Below are positions 5,977-25,433 of a stretch of DNA of 33,174 bases, piece by piece. Made by a program: the position numbers and the translations under genes. This stretch comes from a virus (lineage: Duplodnaviria; Heunggongvirae; Uroviricota; Caudoviricetes), in the IMG/VR virus record IMGVR_UViG_2526164596_000016; one strand, 5' to 3'. Numbering within the stretch: position 1 is the first letter of the stretch; each line of letters begins with the position of its first letter. Under the pieces are notes generated by a model. It was not told the origin of the DNA, searched no databases, and worked only from the letters and a program-made list of their open reading frames with translations.

Positions 5977-6921
5977 ATGCCAACAGTAGTTTCACTTTTT
6001 TCTGGATGCGGTGGTTCCGATGCGGGGGTTTTGAGAGCCGGCTTTGATGTGCTTATGGCCAACGATATCTTGCCGTATGCGCGCGATGTTTATATTGCCA
6101 ATCATCCAGAAACTGATTACATATTAGGCAATATTGCTGATGTAACTACTTTTCCTAAATCTGATTTGCTGGTAGGTTGTTATCCATGTCAGGGATTCAG
6201 CCAGGGTGGTGCGCGTAAAGCCGATCGAAAAATTAATACTCTTTATTTAGAGTTTGCTAGAGCTTTAAACAATATAAAGCCTAAAGCTTTTATAGTAGAA
6301 AACGTGTCTGGTATGGTTAGAAAAAATTTTGAGCATTTGTTATCTGACCAGATCAGGGTTTTTACTGAAGCAGGTTATACTGTTTCCGCAAAAGTTTTAA
6401 ATGCGGCTGAATATGGAGTAGCGCAGGAAAGAAAAAGAATATTTATCGTAGGAATCCGTAATGATTTCAAAGTTAAGTACGAGTTCCCTCAGCCAACTCA
6501 TGGGCCAGCAACTGGCGTCAACTATGTTACTATTAAAGATGCTATAGGGCATTTACCTGAATGGCCAGAAGGTGAATTTTATGATATGGGATTCCATTGG
6601 TATTATATGTCTCGCAATCGTCGCCAGGATTGGGATCAAATTTCAAAGACAATAGTTGCTAATGCAAGGCATATGCCGTTGCATCCTGTCAGTCCTCCGA
6701 TGGAGAAAGTAAGAACTGATGAATGGAGATTTGTTGAGGATCGGAGAGCTCGCAGATTCAGTTTTCGAGAGGCAGCACTATTACAAGGGTTTGAGGATCT
6801 AGTGTTTCCAGAAACAAATGCTGCAAGTCTTGGCATGAAATACACGGTGGTTGGTAATGCAGTGCCTCCGCCGCTTTTTGAAGCTGTAACGAAGGCATTG
6901 CCAATAGAATTATGGGATTGA
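5977..6921 (+). CDS. DNA (cytosine-5)-methyltransferase, Dcm-like
   Basis: 314-aa ORF with C5-MTase motifs in canonical order: FSGCGG (motif I, AdoMet), GCYPCQGFS (motif IV, catalytic Cys), ENV (VI), QERKRIFIVG (VIII), RRFSFREAALLQGF (IX), VGNAVPPPLF (X). Strong RBS. Confidence 0.85.
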   Translation: MPTVVSLFSGCGGSDAGVLRAGFDVLMANDILPYARDVYIANHPETDYILGNIADVTTFPKSDLLVGCYPCQGFSQGGARKADRKINTLYLEFARALNNIKPKAFIVENVSGMVRKNFEHLLSDQIRVFTEAGYTVSAKVLNAAEYGVAQERKRIFIVGIRNDFKVKYEFPQPTHGPATGVNYVTIKDAIGHLPEWPEGEFYDMGFHWYYMSRNRRQDWDQISKTIVANARHMPLHPVSPPMEKVRTDEWRFVEDRRARRFSFREAALLQGFEDLVFPETNAASLGMKYTVVGNAVPPPLFEAVTKALPIELWD

Positions 6922-6928
6922 TAAGCTA

Positions 6929-7924
6929 TTAAGGCTCTGGATTTAATGTATAAAGCTCTTCCTCAAATTCGCGAAACCAATCAGAGGTAGTTATCGCTTC
7001 CCATTGGTTTGCCTTATCAAGTAGATATATGATTCTCAACCTATCTAATAATAATACCCCAGCGGTTGCGTGTGTGCTTACCCATTCGCCATTTGCTTCC
7101 CGATAGAAAACAGGCGTGAACATTGTTGATGGATGCTGGAACGCAATTTGGAAATAGGTGGTCAGTTTTAACACGTTAGCCTCTAATGTTTTGCTTGGCC
7201 ACCCTGTTTCTTGTGCACCACATTGACCAAGAATTCCATAGTTGCTAGTTTGACCATCAGGAAATTCCACTGTAGCAATTAGGTCAAACCCGGCATCACC
7301 AGATGTGGGAGCTCTATTTATTTCCCTTGTGTTTAAACTACAAACTCCAAGATCTTTTCCTAAAGTTTGTAGAGCTGTCCGAAGATTTGTTCCATAATAA
7401 TTTTGCCTATCATCGGAGTTAGCATCAAAAATTCTTACGGTGCCATGTGCAGGTAAGAGAGAAATCATTGCTACTTTACATACTCTGGCAAAGCTCTTTG
7501 CCCAACGTTGTGCTGCTCCTTTAATCGACTTAAAGGATCTAAGTCTAGAGCAGCAAAGAAGAAAAACATATATTCGTTGTTGTTGGTTTAGATTTTCTTT
7601 AATAATTATCTCATCACCTGAAATTATAAATGGATATATTTTGCCAAGAGCACTTTCTCTATATTCGAGTTGTGTCCAAACATCTTCGAGTTGCTCTTCA
7701 AAACGATCATTTCTCTCAGCGTCTCCATTAATTTCTTCTTCAGAATTACATTCTTCATCAATTTCTTCAACGCTTGTTATGCCGAATTTTCTTACTGAAT
7801 CTAAATCATTTTTATGTAGTGAGTTACGTCCGGTATAATTAATTACCGTGAGTAACTCGGCTAAATCTGCAAACAAATGAGGAGAGTTGGGATGCATAAC
7901 TCCTACTTCAAAAGTCATCATCAC
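6929..7924 (-). CDS. Hypothetical protein (331 aa) with acidic N-terminal region; candidate effector or nuclease partner
   Basis: ORF in track; GTG/ATG start cluster (GAGGTGATGATGACT) overlaps the upstream frame stop, suggesting translational coupling; converges on the MTase with a 7-bp gap. No motif recognised. Confidence 0.6.
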   Translation of the reverse strand: MMMTFEVGVMHPNSPHLFADLAELLTVINYTGRNSLHKNDLDSVRKFGITSVEEIDEECNSEEEINGDAERNDRFEEQLEDVWTQLEYRESALGKIYPFIISGDEIIIKENLNQQQRIYVFLLCCSRLRSFKSIKGAAQRWAKSFARVCKVAMISLLPAHGTVRIFDANSDDRQNYYGTNLRTALQTLGKDLGVCSLNTREINRAPTSGDAGFDLIATVEFPDGQTSNYGILGQCGAQETGWPSKTLEANVLKLTTYFQIAFQHPSTMFTPVFYREANGEWVSTHATAGVLLLDRLRIIYLLDKANQWEAITTSDWFREFEEELYTLNPEP

Positions 7925-8438
7925 CTCTGCTATTTTTCTCTGCTATTTCAGAACCTATAAGCTTAATATGTTTATTGATTCTTCGTGCTACTTCATGGGC
8001 CTGTCTATCATACTCTACCGTGGCAACCATGCCTGCTGCATCTATCAAAGCTGCTTCAACTTGATAAAGTAACTGGAGAAAGTCCTTAGTAATATCAGAT
8101 GTCAATTGATAGGCAACTGCGAGTGGAGCCCCCATTCGGAATTGCTCCAATGCCTTAGGGCTACTTACAACAGCAGCTAGTTCTCTTAAATTACGTGATT
8201 CTCCTACACGAGTTTTTTTATCCTCGCCTTTTTTATATAACCATTCAGTTAGTTCTTTTATTTCTTTGTTCTTTAAACTCTTAGAATTGATGATAGGATG
8301 ACTTGGTATTGTGTCTCCATCGTCTTCGATTGAAACTCCGACAAACTGGCCTAACCGCTCATCAGCAAGTGCTGTTGATAATACTGAAAATTTAATCGTT
8401 TCTTCATCTAGCTTTTCAATACCATAAAAATCATTTTT
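7908..8438 (-). CDS. Open frame continuing the ParB-like gene after a -1 shift (C-terminal extension or frameshifted fragment)
   Basis: Hand translation: the frame is open from stop TAA (8439-8441) down to 7908 but has no ATG/GTG/TTG before 8150; an extra A in the A7 run (plus-strand T7 at 8434-8440) would fuse it to the ParB-like ORF. Confidence 0.35.
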   Translation of the reverse strand, partial: KNDFYGIEKLDEETIKFSVLSTALADERLGQFVGVSIEDDGDTIPSHPIINSKSLKNKEIKELTEWLYKKGEDKKTRVGESRNLRELAAVVSSPKALEQFRMGAPLAVAYQLTSDITKDFLQLLYQVEAALIDAAGMVATVEYDRQAHEVARRINKHIKLIGSEIAEKNSRGDDDF

Positions 8439-9028
8439 TTAATGATTTCATACACCGCTAAAGCGTCTAGGTTACGCTTGATATGATCCCTACGACTGCC
8501 AATAGCTCTGGCAACCTCATAGTAGCGTAGCATTGGATCCAGATTTGCATTGGTATAATCAAAAAGCTGTTTAATATATCGAGCTTTTGATAAGGGTTCC
8601 CATTGTTTGACACCAGTAATATGTCTGAAACCAAGGTACGGAAGAATCTCTTCTCTTGTTTGGCGCTCAATGACAGGAACACGATCGACCGTATGTTTTG
8701 CATTTGATGCAATTTCTCGTAGTCGAGCACTTGGATTTTCACATAGTGTCGGATCGCGTAATAATTTGACCGCGGATAGGCGACGGTTTCCTTCAACTAC
8801 AATGTACTTCCCCGGCGCTCCACTATCAGGAATGACAATCAATGGTTCTCCAGGGAAAAAACCATTTTCCGCAATAGCACTCATTAGGTCTTCGATAGAT
8901 GTTGAGGTTGCTATGTAGTTAATCATTCCCAATTGGTCACGAGACACGCCTTCAGGAAGTCTTGGGTTTTCTGTGTCAAGTTCCAAATCATCTAGCGGAA
9001 CATAAAGTATTTCTGAATCAGCAATCAT
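8408..9028 (-). CDS. ParB/Srx-like nuclease-domain protein (N-terminal part)
   Basis: Start taken at MIADSEILYVPLDD (ATG 9028, SD GGAG 6 nt upstream). Contains LELDTENPR and YIVVEGNRRLSAVKLL, the hallmark GxRR arginine motif of the ParB N-terminal fold. Terminates just after an A7 run. Confidence 0.7.
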   Translation of the reverse strand: MIADSEILYVPLDDLELDTENPRLPEGVSRDQLGMINYIATSTSIEDLMSAIAENGFFPGEPLIVIPDSGAPGKYIVVEGNRRLSAVKLLRDPTLCENPSARLREIASNAKHTVDRVPVIERQTREEILPYLGFRHITGVKQWEPLSKARYIKQLFDYTNANLDPMLRYYEVARAIGSRRDHIKRNLDALAVYEIIKKMIFMVLKS

Positions 9029-9075
9029 CTGGATCTCCGTTGAACATGTCCACGAGAAGGAGCACAAAGTTATTT

Positions 9076-16764: not shown

Positions 16765-17190
16765 ATGAAGAAATTATCCCTTTCACTGATGCTGAACGTG
16801 TCGCTGGTGATGATGCTGGCACTGTCCCTGATTTACCCGCAGAGCGTGGCCGTCAGTTTTGTCGCCGCCTGGGCGATTCTGGCGACGGTTATCTGTGTGG
16901 TTGCCGGTGGTGTCGGCGTGTATGCCACCGAGTATGTACTTGAACGCTACGGGCGGGAGCTGCCGCCGGAATCGCTGGCCGTGAAGATTGTCACGTCGCT
17001 GTTTTTGCAGCCGGTGCCGTGGCGCAGACGGGCGGCGGCTCTGGTGGTGATGGTGGCGACGTTTATCTCGCTGGTCGCTGCCGGGTGGATTTTTACTGCG
17101 CTGATTTACCTCGTGGCGTCGGTGTTCTTCCGGCTGATACGTACGGCCTGTCGTCAGCGTTTTGAGGGGCGGGAACCATGTCAAAGCTGA
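16765..17190 (+). CDS. lysA: Lysis regulatory membrane protein LysA
   Basis: 141-aa strongly hydrophobic ORF after K. Confidence 0.7.
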   Translation: MKKLSLSLMLNVSLVMMLALSLIYPQSVAVSFVAAWAILATVICVVAGGVGVYATEYVLERYGRELPPESLAVKIVTSLFLQPVPWRRRAAALVVMVATFISLVAAGWIFTALIYLVASVFFRLIRTACRQRFEGREPCQS

Positions 17191-17648
17191 TGATTGTGCT
17201 GGTCGTGTTGTTATCGCTGGCGGTGGCCGGTCTGTTTCTGGCGAAGCATGAAAACGCCAGCCTGCGCACCTCGCTGGACAGGGCGAACAACGTCGCCAGC
17301 GGGCAGCAGACGACCATCACCATGCTGAAAAATCAGCTTCATGTTGCCCTCACCAGAGCAGACAAAAACGAGCTGGCGCAGGTGGCACTGCGTCAGGAAC
17401 TGGAGAACGCGGCGAAGCGTGAAGCACAGCGCGAGAAAACCATCACGAGGTTACTGAATGAAAACGAAGATTTTCGCCGCTGGTACGGCGCTGACCTGCC
17501 TGATGCTGTGCGCCGGTTGCACCAGCGCCCCGCCTGCACCGACGCCAGTGATTGTCCCCAACGCCTGCCCGAAAGTGAGTCTTTGCCCGATGCCGGGCAG
17601 CGCCCCGGAGACGAACGGCGATTTAAGTGCCGATATCCGGCAGCTTGA
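17178..17648 (+). CDS. lysB: i-spanin (Rz-like) LysB
   Basis: N-terminal transmembrane anchor MSKLMIVLVVLLSLAVAGLFLA followed by a coiled-coil-like region; the exact 3' end is uncertain. Confidence 0.7.
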   Translation: MSKLMIVLVVLLSLAVAGLFLAKHENASLRTSLDRANNVASGQQTTITMLKNQLHVALTRADKNELAQVALRQELENAAKREAQREKTITRLLNENEDFRRWYGADLPDAVRRLHQRPACTDASDCPQRLPESESLPDAGQRPGDERRFKCRYPAA

Positions 17649-18688: not shown

Positions 18689-18694
18689 AGAGGT

Positions 18695-19252
18695 TTATGA
18701 GTGATTTTTATTTGATGCTTTGTATTCTAAAACCTTCTTATTGGCGTAAAAGAATTTTGTATATGACAGGAATATAACCAGACCTGAAGTGAAATAGACG
18801 AGGGATAGTATTAATAATGCTTTTTTGTGACTGTTATTATCTTTAATCTCCTGACTTAACCATTCGGAGTCCTCCTCGTTTAGCTGTAAGAGCTTATTGC
18901 AGGCGATCTCAGGAAGTGTGTCTTTTATAAATACGTTTTGCAGTCTCTTGCAATCGGCAAGGCTATAAGTTTTATTAAATTCAACTGCTTTATTTTTGAA
19001 GGATAAAAGAACTTTGTCACTATAAACATAGTACATCATGTTTTTATATGGTATGCCTATGGCATCCCTTACTATAACGGATTGTTCGTTGTGTATGTAA
19101 CATGCGAGAAGAATGTAAAAAATACTGGCCAGAATTACAATTATTGTTTTAATTATGTGTGGTGGTTTTGTTATGTCACCCCAGATGCGAGTAAGGAAAA
19201 AATACGATGTTTTTAGTTTTCCATCAATCAGTCCCTGCTGTATCATTCTCAC
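18695..19252 (-). CDS. Moron: small membrane protein (two predicted transmembrane helices), unknown function
   Basis: 185-aa ORF antisense to the tail operon in a visibly AT-rich insert between S and V; hydrophobic segments IIKTIIVILASIFYILLACYI and ALLILSLVYFTSGLVIFLSY. Start codon uncertain. Confidence 0.6.
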   Translation of the reverse strand: MRMIQQGLIDGKLKTSYFFLTRIWGDITKPPHIIKTIIVILASIFYILLACYIHNEQSVIVRDAIGIPYKNMMYYVYSDKVLLSFKNKAVEFNKTYSLADCKRLQNVFIKDTLPEIACNKLLQLNEEDSEWLSQEIKDNNSHKKALLILSLVYFTSGLVIFLSYTKFFYANKKVLEYKASNKNHS

Positions 19253-19561
19253 ATTTTCAATGCCTGATACATTGATTCCGTTAATTATTTTAAATAGTTG
19301 AATGTCGCGCCACTCGCGGTCAAGTCTTTTTAATTTTTGTCTGAATATCCAAAATTGAAATAATGTGCAATAAGCCTCATAAGGTTACTTTTACCAAAGC
19401 TAAAAAATGCTAATACTGCAAAGCTACAAAGGAAAAAACGATTAGCCCCCACACATTAGTCACATTATAGCTGACCATTACGCTCTCCTTGAATGTTGTC
19501 TGGTAGTTCTACAAATGAATCCAGATAGCATAACTTTTATATATTGTGCAATCTCACATGC

Positions 19562-21454: not shown

Positions 21455-22058
21455 TTCGCGACTGCTGCCGACCGGCTCATCACCGCTTGAAGTTGCCGCC
21501 GCAAAAGCCTGTGCGGAAATTGAAAAAACGCCGGTCAGTATTCGTGAGCTGTGGAACCCGGACACCTGCCCGGCAAATCTGCTGCCGTGGCTGGCGTGGT
21601 CATTTTCGGTTGACCGCTGGGATGATAAGTGGCCGGAAGCGACAAAACGCGCTGTTATCCGCGATGCGTATTTCATTCACTGCCATAAGGGCACTATAGG
21701 CGCAATCCGGCGTGTGGTGGAGCCGCTCGGCTATCTGATTGAGGTGAGGGAGTGGTGGCAGCTCAACGAGGAGCCGGGGACGTTCCGCATCGTTGTTGGC
21801 GTGCTTGAGCAGGGTATTACCGAGGAAATGTATCAGGAGCTGGAGCGCCTCGTTGCTGATGCAAAACCGGCAAGCCGCCATCTGACGGGACTGGCTATCA
21901 GTTTAAGTACAACCGGCAACATTTTTGCCGGTGCGGGATGCTATCACGGCGACGCCCTGACGGTTTATCCCTACACCCCGGAGGCCATTATTGTCGGAGG
22001 GGATTATTTCCCGGCCTCGGCCATTCATTTAATTGATAACCTGAGAGTAAACGCATGA
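21447..22058 (+). CDS. I: Baseplate protein I
   Basis: ORF overlapping the J stop; start may lie further in. Confidence 0.8.
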   Translation: MSDSRLLPTGSSPLEVAAAKACAEIEKTPVSIRELWNPDTCPANLLPWLAWSFSVDRWDDKWPEATKRAVIRDAYFIHCHKGTIGAIRRVVEPLGYLIEVREWWQLNEEPGTFRIVVGVLEQGITEEMYQELERLVADAKPASRHLTGLAISLSTTGNIFAGAGCYHGDALTVYPYTPEAIIVGGDYFPASAIHLIDNLRVNA

Positions 22059-23347
22059 CAGTGAAATACTACGCCATTCTGACTAATCAGGGCGCAGCAC
22101 GGCTGGCTAACGCGACGATGCTCGGCAGTAAGCTGAATCTGACGCAAATGGCCGTTGGTGATGCGAATGGTGTCTTGCCGACACCAGACCCGGCACAGAC
22201 AAAACTGATTAACCAGAAACGCATTGCGCCGCTGAATCTTCTGAGTGTTGACCCGAACAACCAGAGCCAGATTATTGCGGAGCAAATCATCCCTGAGAAC
22301 GAGGGCGGATTCTGGATCCGTGAGATTGGGCTTTATGATGAAGAAGGCGTACTCATTGCGGTGGCGAACTGCCCGGAAACGTACAAACCGCAGTTGCAGG
22401 AAGGCAGTGGTCGTACCCAGACTATCCGCATGATTCTGGTTGTCACGAATACCGAAGCTATTACGCTGAAAATCGACCCGTCGGTGGTACTGGCGACCCG
22501 TAAATACGTGGATGATGAAGTCCTGGAATTAAGGCTGTATGTGGATGACCAGATGAGAAACCACATTGCCGCACAGGATCCTCATACCCAGTATGCACAG
22601 AAACATAATCCGACATTTACCGGAGAACCAAAAGCGCCGACGCCTGCCGCAGGAAATAACACCACGCGGATTGCGACCACTGAGTTTGTTCAGGCCGCTA
22701 TTACCGCTCTGATTAACGGTGCGCCAGCCACACTGGACACACTGAAAGAAATTGCCGCGGCCATTAACAATGACCCGAAATTCAGCACCACCATTAACAA
22801 TGCGCTGGCAGGTAAACAACCGCTGGACAATACGCTGACTCATTTGAGTGGAAAGGATGTTGCCGGTCTTCTCGTATACCTTGGTTTGGGAGAAGGTTCG
22901 GCATTACCCGTTGGTGTGCCTGTTCCGTGGCCTTCAGCCACACCGCCTACTGGCTGGCTGAAATGCAACGGTGCGGCTTTTTCTGCTGAAGAATACCCGG
23001 AACTGGCAAAGGTTTATCCGACAAATAAATTGCCTGATTTACGCGGTGAATTTATTCGTGGCTGGGATGACGGACGTGGAGTGGATGCCGGGCGACAATT
23101 ATTATCTTCACAGGGGGATGCAATAAGAAATATTGAGGGATTCGCAGATGGCGGGATCGGTATGTCTTTTGATGCAATCAGAGGGGCTTTTTATGATGCA
23201 GGAACACGATCTGCGAGAATGCCGAATAACACAACTGATATAGGCAAAACCGATGACCTTGGATTCGACGCCTCTCGTGTCGTGCCAACAGCTAATGAAA
23301 ACCGTCCACGTAACATCGCCTTTAATTATATTGTGAGGGCTGCATAA
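22055..23347 (+). CDS. H: Tail fibre protein H (constant N-terminal part plus the currently expressed variable C-terminus)
   Basis: 430-aa ORF; N-terminal YAILTNQGAARLANA...MAVGDANG...GGFWIREIGLYDEEGVLIAVAN typical of P2 H / Mu S-type fibres; crosses the hix-like site at 22881. Confidence 0.85.
   Translation: MTVKYYAILTNQGAARLANATMLGSKLNLTQMAVGDANGVLPTPDPAQTKLINQKRIAPLNLLSVDPNNQSQIIAEQIIPENEGGFWIREIGLYDEEGVLIAVANCPETYKPQLQEGSGRTQTIRMILVVTNTEAITLKIDPSVVLATRKYVDDEVLELRLYVDDQMRNHIAAQDPHTQYAQKHNPTFTGEPKAPTPAAGNNTTRIATTEFVQAAITALINGAPATLDTLKEIAAAINNDPKFSTTINNALAGKQPLDNTLTHLSGKDVAGLLVYLGLGEGSALPVGVPVPWPSATPPTGWLKCNGAAFSAEEYPELAKVYPTNKLPDLRGEFIRGWDDGRGVDAGRQLLSSQGDAIRNIEGFADGGIGMSFDAIRGAFYDAGTRSARMPNNTTDIGKTDDLGFDASRVVPTANENRPRNIAFNYIVRAA
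22869..22894. repeat. hix/gix-like inversion site (left): TTCTCGTATACC TT GGTTTGGGAGAA
   Basis: Read directly; 15-bp core TTGGTTTGGGAGAAG (22881-22895) recurs in inverted orientation at 24699-24713; half-sites resemble hixL as recalled. Confidence 0.6.
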
Positions 23348-23940
23348 TGAAACCTGTTTTTGATGAAAATGGGCTGACTACAGTGCCGGGTGATATGCGT
23401 TGTTTTTATTATGATGCAGTAACGTCTGAATATTCGGGCTGGTCTGATGAATATATTAATACTGGCGTAAGTATGCCCGCCTGTTCCACTGGTATTGACC
23501 CGGGCGAATACATTCCGGGGAAAGTGGCAGTATTTACGGGTAAGGGATGGAGCCATGAAGAAGACCACCGCAATGAGACTGTTTACTCAATCGAAAATGG
23601 CGTAGCTGTTACAGTGGATTATATCGGTGCCATCAAAGACGGTTATGTCACGCTTTCACCGTTAACGCCATACGATAAATGGGATGGTGAGAAATGGGTG
23701 ACAGATACTGAGGCACAGCATAGTGCCGCACTAGACGCGGCAGAAGCACAGCGCCAGTCGCTGATTGATGCTGCAATGGCTTCCATCAGTCTGATTCAAC
23801 TGAAATTACAGGCCGGGCGGAAGCTGACGCAGGCAGAAACAACCCGACTTAACGCCGTGCTGGATTATATTGACGCGGTGACGGTAACAGATACCAGCAC
23901 TGCGCCGGATGTCATCTGGCCTGAACTGCCGAAGGCGTAG
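23347..23940 (+). CDS. G: Tail fibre assembly chaperone G (expressed orientation)
   Basis: 197-aa ORF immediately after H with a conserved Tfa-type C-terminus (...DTSTAPDVIWPELPKA). Confidence 0.8.
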   Translation: MKPVFDENGLTTVPGDMRCFYYDAVTSEYSGWSDEYINTGVSMPACSTGIDPGEYIPGKVAVFTGKGWSHEEDHRNETVYSIENGVAVTVDYIGAIKDGYVTLSPLTPYDKWDGEKWVTDTEAQHSAALDAAEAQRQSLIDAAMASISLIQLKLQAGRKLTQAETTRLNAVLDYIDAVTVTDTSTAPDVIWPELPKA

Positions 23941-24352
23941 GCCATTCAATATCTGGCGCACCGGAAGTATCGACCAGTTCCAGTGTGTCCAGATAATCCA
24001 GCCACAAATTATATTGCGCCAGTTCCTCACCTTTCAGGCGACCAATCGCCGCTTTACCAGGCCATTGCTTACTGTTTATGTATTCGTTGACCTGATTAAT
24101 CAATTGCTGCTTTTCCAGTTCGGCTGCGGCAATTTGTTCCTCATGAGTTGGCGGTGGAATATCAATCCATGCAGGCATTCCGTCGATGACACCTCTGTAT
24201 TTTCCTTCTGGTGCTTCCTTCATAAATTCGGCGGCAACAGTGTCGTCAATTTCGATTCCATCATCGGGCCATTCGCCGGATTCCTGATAAGCGATTTTAA
24301 GCTCCACAGGGAAAAACGCATTTTTATCGGCACTGAAAATATATTTCTGCAT
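23912..24352 (-). CDS. Alternative tail fibre assembly chaperone (silent inverted copy)
   Basis: 146-aa minus-strand ORF with the same Tfa-type C-terminus (...DTSGAPDIEWPTPSAVQAR), converging on G. Confidence 0.75.
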   Translation of the reverse strand: MQKYIFSADKNAFFPVELKIAYQESGEWPDDGIEIDDTVAAEFMKEAPEGKYRGVIDGMPAWIDIPPPTHEEQIAAAELEKQQLINQVNEYINSKQWPGKAAIGRLKGEELAQYNLWLDYLDTLELVDTSGAPDIEWPTPSAVQAR

Positions 24353-24354
24353 TT

Positions 24355-24711
24355 CTACCGTCCTATCGAAATATAACTGAATCTGTATTGCTGTGAGATA
24401 TCACTGGTTGCCACACGCCACGCTGAATTACTGATATGTTCAAAATTTACAGACAAAACCTGCGGGGCAGGATTCGACGGGTCTGACTGAACGGCATCAG
24501 ACATAACACTGACTGAAACCATCGGCCGATTAGGGAATGGTATAGGGAAATGTCCACTGATAAAGCGGGTCGTGTTTCCTGAAAAAGTGCCAAACTGAAC
24601 AATATATCCACCTGGTAGCCTGAACCATCCCGAACCAGAAGCGAATGCTCCCATATCCGGTATCTGATTATCTCCTGTGCCCACATCCCTTTTCGCCGCT
24701 TCTCCCAAACC
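24355..24711 (-). CDS. Alternative tail fibre C-terminal cassette (promoterless; would fuse to H after inversion)
   Basis: Minus-strand frame begins ...VGLGEAAKRD..., sharing the GLGE junction with H; the crossover dinucleotide sits at codon positions 2-3 in both copies, so inversion keeps the frame. Confidence 0.7.
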   Translation of the reverse strand, partial: GLGEAAKRDVGTGDNQIPDMGAFASGSGWFRLPGGYIVQFGTFSGNTTRFISGHFPIPFPNRPMVSVSVMSDAVQSDPSNPAPQVLSVNFEHISNSAWRVATSDISQQYRFSYISIGR

Positions 24712-24725
24712 AACGTTTATGAAAA
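24700..24725. repeat. hix/gix-like inversion site (right), read on the minus strand as TTTTCATAAACG TT GGTTTGGGAGAA
   Basis: Read directly; right half identical to the left site, left half close to the hix half-site as recalled. Confidence 0.6.
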
Positions 24726-24780
24726 TGCAGAGATAACGGCTAACTGGCATCATCTCCGGTTTTTATTCAGGGGGATGATC

Positions 24781-25374
24781 ATGCTTATTGGCTATGTACG
24801 CGTGTCAACAAATGACCAGAACACGGAATTGCAGAGTAATGCGCTGGAGTGTGCAGGATGTGAGCTGATTTTTGAGGATAAAATCAGCGGCTCGAAGTCC
24901 GACAGGCCGGGGCTGAAAAAACTGCTCAGGACACTATCGGCAGGAGACACGTTGGTTGTCTGGAAGCTGGACAGACTGGGGCGCAGTATGCGGCATCTCG
25001 TTACGCTGATAGAAGAGTTGCGCCAGCGTGGTGTGAATTTCAGAAGCCTGACTGACAGTATTGATACCAGTACCCCAATGGGCCGTTTCTTTTTTCATGT
25101 CATGGGTGCCCTGGCTGAAATGGAGCGAGAACTCATTGTCGAGCGGACACGCGCAGGACTGGAAGCGGCCAGAGCCAAAGGTCGTATTGGTGGCAGACGA
25201 CCGAAACTCACCGCGAGAGAGTGGGAGCAGGCAGGACGGTTGCTGGCTGCGGGGGAATCTCGTCAACGTGTGGCGCTGATTTTTGATATTGGCCTGTCCA
25301 CGCTCTATAAAAAATTCCCCTCATCAGCGACAAAGAATAAATTGTGTCATCCCTTAGCCAACCGGGACAAATAG
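24781..25374 (+). CDS. Serine DNA invertase, Hin/Gin/Pin/Cin family
   Basis: MLIGYVRVSTNDQNTELQ...DTLVVWKLDRLGRS...GRFFFHVMGALAEMERELIVERT...GRIGGRRPKLT: the serine recombinase catalytic core and C-terminal HTH, strongly resembling Gin as recalled. Confidence 0.9.
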   Translation: MLIGYVRVSTNDQNTELQSNALECAGCELIFEDKISGSKSDRPGLKKLLRTLSAGDTLVVWKLDRLGRSMRHLVTLIEELRQRGVNFRSLTDSIDTSTPMGRFFFHVMGALAEMERELIVERTRAGLEAARAKGRIGGRRPKLTAREWEQAGRLLAAGESRQRVALIFDIGLSTLYKKFPSSATKNKLCHPLANRDK

Positions 25375-25433
25375 CCTGACATCTCCGGCACAACTGAAAA
25401 TACCACTCACCCATTAACCACGGAGTTAAACGG

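Follow-up and report, generated by a model that had tools for sequence, protein, structure and literature searches.

Switching between alternative tail-fibre tips by inversion of a DNA segment has already been described for the phages Mu and P1, for the e14 element of Escherichia coli K-12 and for P2-like prophages. Here we analyse a locus of the same kind in a 33,174-bp stretch of viral DNA (IMG/VR record IMGVR_UViG_2526164596_000016; called the window below, by which we mean the whole stretch that was analysed), in which a tail-fibre gene (H), an alternative fibre tip, two tail-fibre chaperone genes and a serine DNA invertase gene lie next to one another. The best phage matches of the window are Peduovirus or P2-like phages, and judged by its sequence it is a P2-like (Peduovirus) prophage of E. 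coli; it is 99.98% identical to the P2-like prophage beside fieF in E. coli O111:H21 strain 15A (NZ_CP077477.1). The locus is very probably a working switch of the Pin/Gin type, in which site-specific inversion exchanges one receptor-binding tip for another, together with their chaperones, under the P2 late operon. Such a feature is real, ordinary and already known, and it carries little weight as a discovery because the mechanism is a textbook one that has been reported before in this phage family.

Measurements by quantitative polymerase chain reaction (PCR) showed that both PinE and PinQ invert the 1797-bp P segment of e14, which is flanked by the repeat 5'-TTGGTTTGGGAGAAGG-3' (Kirigo et al. 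2025, PMC12529663). Inversion by PinQ or PinE creates the fibre chimera StfE2, which blocks adsorption of phage T2, so that the element provides a recombinase-activated defence (PMC12529663). Two P2-like prophages of enteropathogenic E. coli (EPEC) E2348/69 carry invertible loci that were found to be phase-variable by whole-genome sequencing and PCR (Goldberg et al. 2014, PMC4272514), one of them with two states and the other with four states and three repeats (PMC4272514). The Z/fun hotspot of P2 often carries an invertase with inverted neighbouring genes (bioRxiv 10.1101/2024.10.15.618418). Deposited annotations of Escherichia phage pro483, 500465-2 and Salmonella phage MET_P1_103_31 contain the same gene set as the window locus, the parts of which are as follows (positions are those of the window).

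22055-23347, plus strand: tail-fibre gene H in its current state, 430 amino acids (aa), assigned by Pfam, PHROG 327 (tail protein) and RefSeq ('phage tail protein')
22869-22894, inside H: left 26-bp recombination site, TTCTCGTATACC TT GGTTTGGGAGAA, with the core TT at 22881-22882
22883-24711: predicted invertible segment, 1829 bp between the core dinucleotides
22883-23347, plus strand: variable tip A, a collar-type receptor-binding C-terminus now fused to H
23347-23940, plus strand: chaperone A for tail-fibre assembly, 197 aa (Pfam Caudo_TAP, 3.1e-26; PHROG 105)
23912-24352, minus strand: alternative chaperone B, 146 aa (Pfam Caudo_TAP, 1.1e-33)
24355-24711, minus strand: alternative tip B, about 118 aa from the crossover (Pfam Gp53-like_C, 4.7e-09)
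24700-24725: right 26-bp recombination site, TTCTCCCAAACC AA CGTTTATGAAAA, with the core AA at 24712-24713 and a degenerate outer half-site
24726-24780, plus strand: conserved spacer from the right site to the invertase start, containing the ribosome-binding site of the invertase
24781-25374, plus strand: serine DNA invertase of the Pin/Gin/Cin/Hin family, 197 aa, outside the invertible segment

Of the characterised systems, the e14 P segment with its invertase PinE is the nearest. The published e14 repeat contains the 15-mer TTGGTTTGGGAGAAG of the window, the invertase-proximal 26-bp sites of the two elements are identical (26/26), and the left site of e14 has the same inner half and TT core as the left site of the window. 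The e14 layout stfP-tfaP / tfaE-stfE / pinE equals the four-gene layout plus invertase of the window, including a 29-bp overlap of the chaperone genes. In the window this overlap joins the 3' ends of convergent genes on opposite strands (23912-23940), and the same overlap is present in tfaP/tfaE of e14 and in related loci. At the protein level, StfE is 60% identical to tip A, TfaE 62% to chaperone A and TfaP 54% to chaperone B. The two elements also differ: the segment measures 1797 bp in e14 but 1829 bp in the window, and the gp53-like tip B has no detectable match to the C-terminus of StfP. Moreover, e14 is a defective lambdoid element whose fibre has a short N-terminus (StfP, 209 aa), whereas the window has an apparently complete P2-type tail operon and an H protein with a P2-type N-terminal domain.

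The P2-like invertible loci share with the window the slot between the fibre genes and the sheath gene FI, the invertase, the two chaperones and the alternative tips. The tip pair varies by phage, however, and the window has two sites and two states in contrast to the four-variant EPEC locus (the likeness to the EPEC loci is drawn from their descriptions). The G segment of Mu follows the same logic, with a constant N-terminus and alternative C-termini that each have their own chaperone. Its invertase Gin is 78% identical to that of the window, the 26-bp sites belong to the same half-site family, the spacing from site to invertase start is 69 bp (68 bp in the window), and the enhancer region lies in the 5' coding sequence of the invertase, where the window has its candidate enhancer and where both Fis-like 15-mers agree at 14/15 positions. 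In contrast, Mu has a TC/GA core where the window has TT/AA, its segment of about 3 kb contains far longer variable parts, its phage backbone differs, and its tips and chaperones have at most a weak relationship to those of the window (U', 32% identity over 65 aa). The C segment of P1 with Cin (and Min of p15B) resembles the window in its invertase (Cin, 78% identical) and in the TT/AA core of the cix sites, and its annotated enhancer is homologous to the candidate enhancer of the window (55/72 identical), but cin lies on the other side of the fibre gene, the C segment is 4.2 kb long and the fibre proteins differ. Salmonella Hin belongs to the same invertase subclass and likewise acts at sites of 26 bp (hix); its enhancer, which binds Fis, lies within hin, just as the candidate enhancer of the window lies within the invertase gene. 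Hin, however, flips a promoter and not coding cassettes, and hin is located inside its own segment, unlike the invertase gene of the window.

The sequence TTGGTTTGGGAGAAG occurs exactly twice in the window, at 22881-22895 (plus strand) and 24699-24713 (minus strand); the chance expectation, with up to 2 mismatches allowed, is 0.09 matches. With a repeat finder, the pair grows to a 27-nucleotide (nt) inverted repeat (22869-22895 and 24699-24725) whose arms are 85% complementary and 1803 nt apart. We scored the 26-bp sites against the family consensus TTCTCNNAAACCNNGGTTTNNGAGAA, which has 20 scored positions. The left site matches at 19/20 and the right site at 18/20, and no further position in the window scores 16 or more. 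Among 100 shuffles of the window, none contained a site of at least 18/20, and the mean number of matches at 15/20 or more was 0.16. The cores TT and AA are one dinucleotide in opposite orientation, as serine invertases require for inversion. In nearly all of 79 related IMG/VR loci, the fibre gene contains a site with a TT core and a second site, with an AA core, lies near the invertase, the latter starting 80-81 bp upstream of the invertase start in most of them. A third hix-like match in the window (8621-8646, ATGTCTGAAACC AA GGTACGGAAGAA), inside a PD-Lambda-5_A-like gene, scores 15/20. This is chance level (0.16 expected per shuffle), and there is no evidence for a multi-site shufflon.

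Between the cores lie two convergent cassettes, each consisting of a tail-fibre tip and a chaperone. Pfam places Phage_tail_fib at residues 1-150 of H (1.5e-62) and Collar at residues 287-334 (1.5e-14). The constant N-terminal part of H ends at the crossover (22881-22882), and the variable part beyond it is the collar-type tip A, which, besides its 60% identity to e14 StfE, matches the tail-fibre structures 9cuy (4e-32) and T4 gp37 2xgf (2.6e-15), these being solved short and long tail-fibre proteins. Chaperone A is predicted to be the partner of tip A and to be currently expressed with H, and chaperone B to be silent in the present orientation. Tip B lacks both a promoter and a start codon of its own and is predicted to be joined to H only after inversion; a search of Protein Data Bank sequences with this tip gave zero matches. 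PHROGs assignments agree with Pfam for the open reading frames (ORFs) of the locus, and NCBIfam gave no above-cutoff match for any of the five locus proteins, including no equivalog for the invertase.

Inversion is predicted to preserve the reading frame of the fibre. In H, read in the frame that begins at 22055, the core TT supplies the second and third bases of a CTT codon; on the reverse strand, in the other cassette, it does so for a GTT codon. When 22883-24711 was inverted in silico, the result was an unbroken in-frame protein, H', of 394 aa, with the ATG of chaperone B 2 nt past the H' stop codon. This predicted H' is identical at 386 of 394 residues (98%) to an annotated tail protein of E. 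coli LT2-3 (WP_112872542.1). A preliminary description of this DNA had already proposed a 15-bp inverted repeat with each copy inside a 26-bp hix-like site, a segment of roughly 1.8 kb with the C-terminus of H and a chaperone in forward and an alternative C-terminus and chaperone in reverse orientation, and a crossover at codon positions 2-3 of CTT and GTT that keeps the frame. Our results bear out these proposals: the repeat was recovered at its exact coordinates with sites close to consensus, ORFs and Pfam agree on the two cassettes, the computed length between cores is 1829 bp, and H' is unbroken.

We searched complete E. coli genomes with the predicted inverted sequence, counting genomes at a query coverage of at least 80%. 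The inverted left junction (600 nt) has full-length matches (100% coverage) of 97-98% identity; at the counting threshold, 21 genomes carry it and 272 carry the current junction. A 2.4-kb region spanning both junctions was flipped in 33 genomes and oriented as in the window in 34 (megablast). The best matches of this region are single and collinear in both orientations, with about 96-97% identity and 99-100% coverage. GPEC1222, ERP001 and OY754349 appear in both orientation lists at different coordinates, indicating that they hold two prophages in opposite states. Among the 79 related IMG/VR loci, the collar-type tip points in the reverse direction in 28 cases and in the forward direction in 20-26, and one locus with the same four genes as the window (L045; 95-100% aa identity) is flipped relative to two others (L036 and L066). 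At the level of single nucleotides, the locus of strain LT2-3 (L002) and the window match up to the end of GGTTTGGGAGAAG except at 22875, where a T/C substitution falls in the left site's outer half; beyond the end of this shared stretch, L002 continues as the reverse complement of the right inner flank of the window. Because the two sequences diverge directly after the common 15-mer, the breakpoint lies within the repeat. Indirectly but strongly, the occurrence of both orientations in nature, the breakpoints in the repeat and the parallel with e14 support inversion of the segment.

Orientation differences among genomes might instead reflect homologous recombination or cassette exchange between prophages, that is, mosaicism without site-specific inversion. 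Such exchange would fit the collar tip of L002, which is only 40% identical to that of the window as against 95-99% for the other three genes, as well as the many cassette combinations among related loci and the known exchange of receptor-binding proteins at the Z/fun hotspot of P2 (bioRxiv 10.1101/2024.10.15.618418). Nevertheless, the breakpoints of the flips are exact and fall within the 15-bp repeat that the 26-bp sites contain, and whole segments with the same four genes match collinearly in both orientations. A 15-bp repeat is also a very inefficient substrate for homologous recombination, and a dedicated invertase gene adjoins the segment. We thus consider it extremely improbable that mosaicism in place of inversion produced the two orientations, although the two processes can both hold and are not mutually exclusive.

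Some of the related contigs have a more complex appearance. L020, L026, L039, L042 and L045 contain two opposite invertase copies, or three to four sites with duplicated cassettes, and L045 contains both the junction of the constant part of H with tip A and that with tip B. These multi-copy contigs look like assemblies of mixed-orientation cultures or like two prophages and not like real structures.

The invertase of the window matches Pfam Resolvase (2.2e-52) and HTH_7 as well as PHROG 125 ('DNA invertase', 1e-99), and its residues 1-182 align to the Mu Gin crystal structures 3UJ3 and 4M6F (E 7e-93). It has the N-terminal catalytic domain, C-terminal helix-turn-helix, catalytic serine and Arg/Asp cluster of small serine recombinases. 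The catalytic set of gamma-delta resolvase consists of R8, S10, D67, R68 and R71, and the equivalent residues of the invertase (R7, S9, D64, R65 and R68) are intact, as is Y5. Over about 181-186 aa, the enzyme is 86% identical to e14 PinE, 78% to P1 Cin and 78% to Mu Gin. The preliminary description had called it a Gin-like serine invertase beginning 68 bp outside the right site. Family and position stand, but its nearest relative is e14 Pin and not Hin or Gin, and the distance of 68 bp separates the ATG (24781) from the last base of the 15-bp repeat (24713), while 55 bp lie between the 26-bp site and the ATG.

Two positions of the invertase bear on its regulation. Hin H107 (H107Y) is a position of enhancer-independent mutants (PMC3798978), and position M114 together with Hin H107 marks such mutants. 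The invertase is wild-type at both corresponding residues, H106 and M114, which suggests a regulated enzyme; position M114 reads Val in the Gin structure sequences 3UJ3 and 4M6F. In addition, the basic helix-B residues through which Hin contacts its enhancer (K47, R48 and K51; PMC3798978) correspond to basic residues in the invertase (K46, K47 and R50).

In a MAFFT alignment of 84 upstream regions, most columns of the spacer (24726-24780) have a majority of at least 90%, and the spacer is highly conserved in relatives including e14. Folding of 24726-24785 gives a possible 9-bp hairpin (24749-24757 with 24771-24779) that would cover the ribosome-binding site of the invertase. This hairpin is not more stable than those of shuffled sequences (z = -0.65) and thus gives only a hint of translational damping. 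A terminator-like hairpin at 24742-24761 was likewise no more stable than shuffles and is not claimed here.

The 5' end of the invertase gene contains a candidate recombinational enhancer with the following parts.

24799-24870: candidate enhancer, nt 19-90 of the invertase gene, homologous to the annotated P1 Cin enhancer (cin nt 19-90)
24802-24816: Fis-like G-N13-C 15-mer I, GTGTCAACAAATGAC
24851-24865: Fis-like G-N13-C 15-mer II, GTGCAGGATGTGAGC

Over these 72 nt, the candidate is identical to e14 at 62 positions, to P1 at 55 and to Mu at 53. Both Fis-like 15-mers agree at 14/15 positions with Mu and e14 and at 13-14/15 with P1; the distance from centre to centre is 49 bp, and 96.5 bp separate the first 15-mer from the centre of the right site. 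We used 72 distinct related invertase genes to examine conservation at the DNA level. Synonymous-codon entropy is 0.29-0.36 at gene nt 1-36 and 73-90, compared with a mean of 0.82. The flanking G and C of the 15-mers are invariant in this set, the exception being P1 cin, which is outside the set and has A at the final position of site I. Taken together, the two 15-mers have a joint per-nucleotide entropy of 0.128 (mean 0.401), which ranks among the lowest 1.3% when all equivalent placements are compared; this rank is not a probability because the related genes are phylogenetically non-independent. This low entropy supports an additional constraint at the DNA level, short of proof.

The non-independence of these genes weighs against a functional, Fis-aided switch, as do several other points. 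The predicted Fis sites rest on homology and on conservation inside a coding region that is also conserved as protein, since the N-terminus is the catalytic motif. A sigma-70 consensus scan of the interval from the right site to the invertase start gave no match, both the window and the prophage of strain 15A are in a single orientation, and the annotation of lysB as a pseudogene in the 15A prophage makes full phage viability uncertain. The lack of a recognisable promoter, the single orientation and the lysB pseudogene, along with the homopolymer indels that break two cargo ORFs of the window, would also be expected of a fossil switch whose parts are still recognisable but whose segment no longer inverts, owing to low invertase expression or decay of the prophage, leaving the fibre fixed in the collar-tip state. 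However, the invertase ORF is intact with all catalytic residues present, both sites are near consensus with matching cores, and the ORFs of the silent cassette are intact as well. An assembly, moreover, shows only the majority orientation, and the segment could also be inverted in trans by another Pin-family enzyme of the host, as e14 is by PinQ (PMC12529663). The two orientations are also about equally frequent among cassettes of about 97% identity, which indicates recent and repeated switching. A fossil is therefore unlikely, though it is the least improbable of the alternatives we considered.

We favour a working switch, which might operate as follows. Invertase dimers (24781-25374) would bind both 26-bp sites, and host Fis bound to the enhancer in the 5' end of the invertase gene would aid assembly of the invertasome. 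The four strands would then be cut at the central TT/AA, and subunit rotation would turn the 1829-bp segment round. The crossover lies within a conserved coding motif, (L/V)-G-L-G-E, so that the 275-residue constant part of H can join either tip in frame. Depending on orientation, the constant part would be followed by tip A (collar-type, then the 197-aa chaperone) or by tip B (gp53-like, then the 146-aa chaperone), and only the cassette facing the late V-W-J-I-H operon would be expressed. We infer activity in this strain, dependence on Fis and a difference between the receptors of the two tips. Two host-range states would be expected by analogy with Mu and P1, and a lysogenic population would then release virions with two adsorption specificities, a form of host-range bet-hedging.

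The switch might alternatively serve mainly the lysogen and not the virion, one orientation giving a fibre that protects the host as StfE2 of e14 does; this possibility and the virion-centred reading are not mutually exclusive. It would be in keeping with the 15-mer and right site shared with e14, with the identities of tip A to StfE (60%) and of chaperone A to TfaE (62%), and with the recombinase-activated defence demonstrated for e14 (PMC12529663). Yet the e14 effect came from a chimera of the StfE N-terminus with the StfP C-terminus, and the fibre gene of the window belongs to a P2 late operon that appears to be complete (V W J I H G). The P2 late operon is Ogr-dependent and silent in lysogens. 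A role mainly in the lysogen is very unlikely, and we give equally little credence to the related idea, by analogy with e14, that the switch is in addition a host-side anti-phage toggle whose segment could be flipped in trans by Pin-family invertases of the host, with H or H' perhaps made at a low level in lysogens.

If the locus is the tip-alternating switch that we favour, it affects how such prophages are annotated and interpreted. A fragment annotated as 'gp53-like domain-containing protein' and a second chaperone gene are the silent half of a switch and not pseudogenes. Assemblies of such prophages report just one of two coexisting states, and anyone predicting the host range of this P2-like prophage, which comes from a pathogenic E. 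coli lineage, should weigh two receptor-binding tips.

The wider context of the locus is that of a P2-type phage. The gene order, read from the RefSeq annotation of the 99.98%-identical 15A prophage, is int, C, cox, A, cargo, Q P O N M L X Y K lys, R S, V W J I H G, FI FII E T U D ogr. According to the P2 annotation, the interval between G and FI in P2 contains a terminator, the lysogenic-conversion gene Z/fun and the promoter pF. Instead of Z/fun, the window has the second cassette and the invertase at this place, and the inserted module ends within the invertase gene.

25342-25433, plus strand: right boundary of the inserted module, where homology to the P2 pF (FI operon) promoter restarts in the last invertase codons

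The alignment with P2 17509-17664 is near-identical from about window position 25354 through the FI start codon; the P2 annotation supplies the pF activator site and transcription start. The last approximately 10 codons of the invertase and its stop codon come from sequence homologous to the P2 pF promoter and activator site, and this P2-like 3' end explains the non-homologous C-terminal tail of the enzyme (197 aa compared with 184 aa in PinE). The window has other sequence in place of the distal part of the activator-binding region of P2.

A BLAST alignment of the window with the 15A prophage shows 2 single-nucleotide polymorphisms (2286 and 23377) and 4 homopolymer indels. The latter are 1-nt deletions in homopolymer runs of the window (8440, 19338, 19438 and 32190), and those that break two cargo ORFs could be either sequencing errors or real frameshifts. 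The PD-Lambda-5_A-like gene encodes 373 aa in 15A but is only a 219-aa ORF in the window (8408-9067), and a hypothetical gene between S and V encodes 261 aa in 15A but only 185 aa in the window (18695-19252). The latter is a reverse-strand gene (window approximately 18693-19478 by its 15A extent) with the tail-completion gene S on one side and the baseplate gene V on the other, and its product had no match in Pfam or PADLOC. The lysB gene (Rz-like spanin; window approximately 17178-17537, plus strand) is annotated as an incomplete pseudogene in the 15A prophage, which could affect the efficiency of lysis.

The old/tin hotspot of P2, between the replication gene A and the portal gene Q, carries three cargo genes in the window (5977-9067). 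The first encodes a Dcm-type C5 cytosine methyltransferase (5977-6921, plus strand; PADLOC DruM2-like, 1e-113; Pfam DNA_methylase), the second a protein of about 330 aa with no family match (6929-7924, minus strand), and the third is the ParB-N / PD-Lambda-5_A-like gene (6e-29). From these family matches, the cargo may represent a defence or anti-restriction island.

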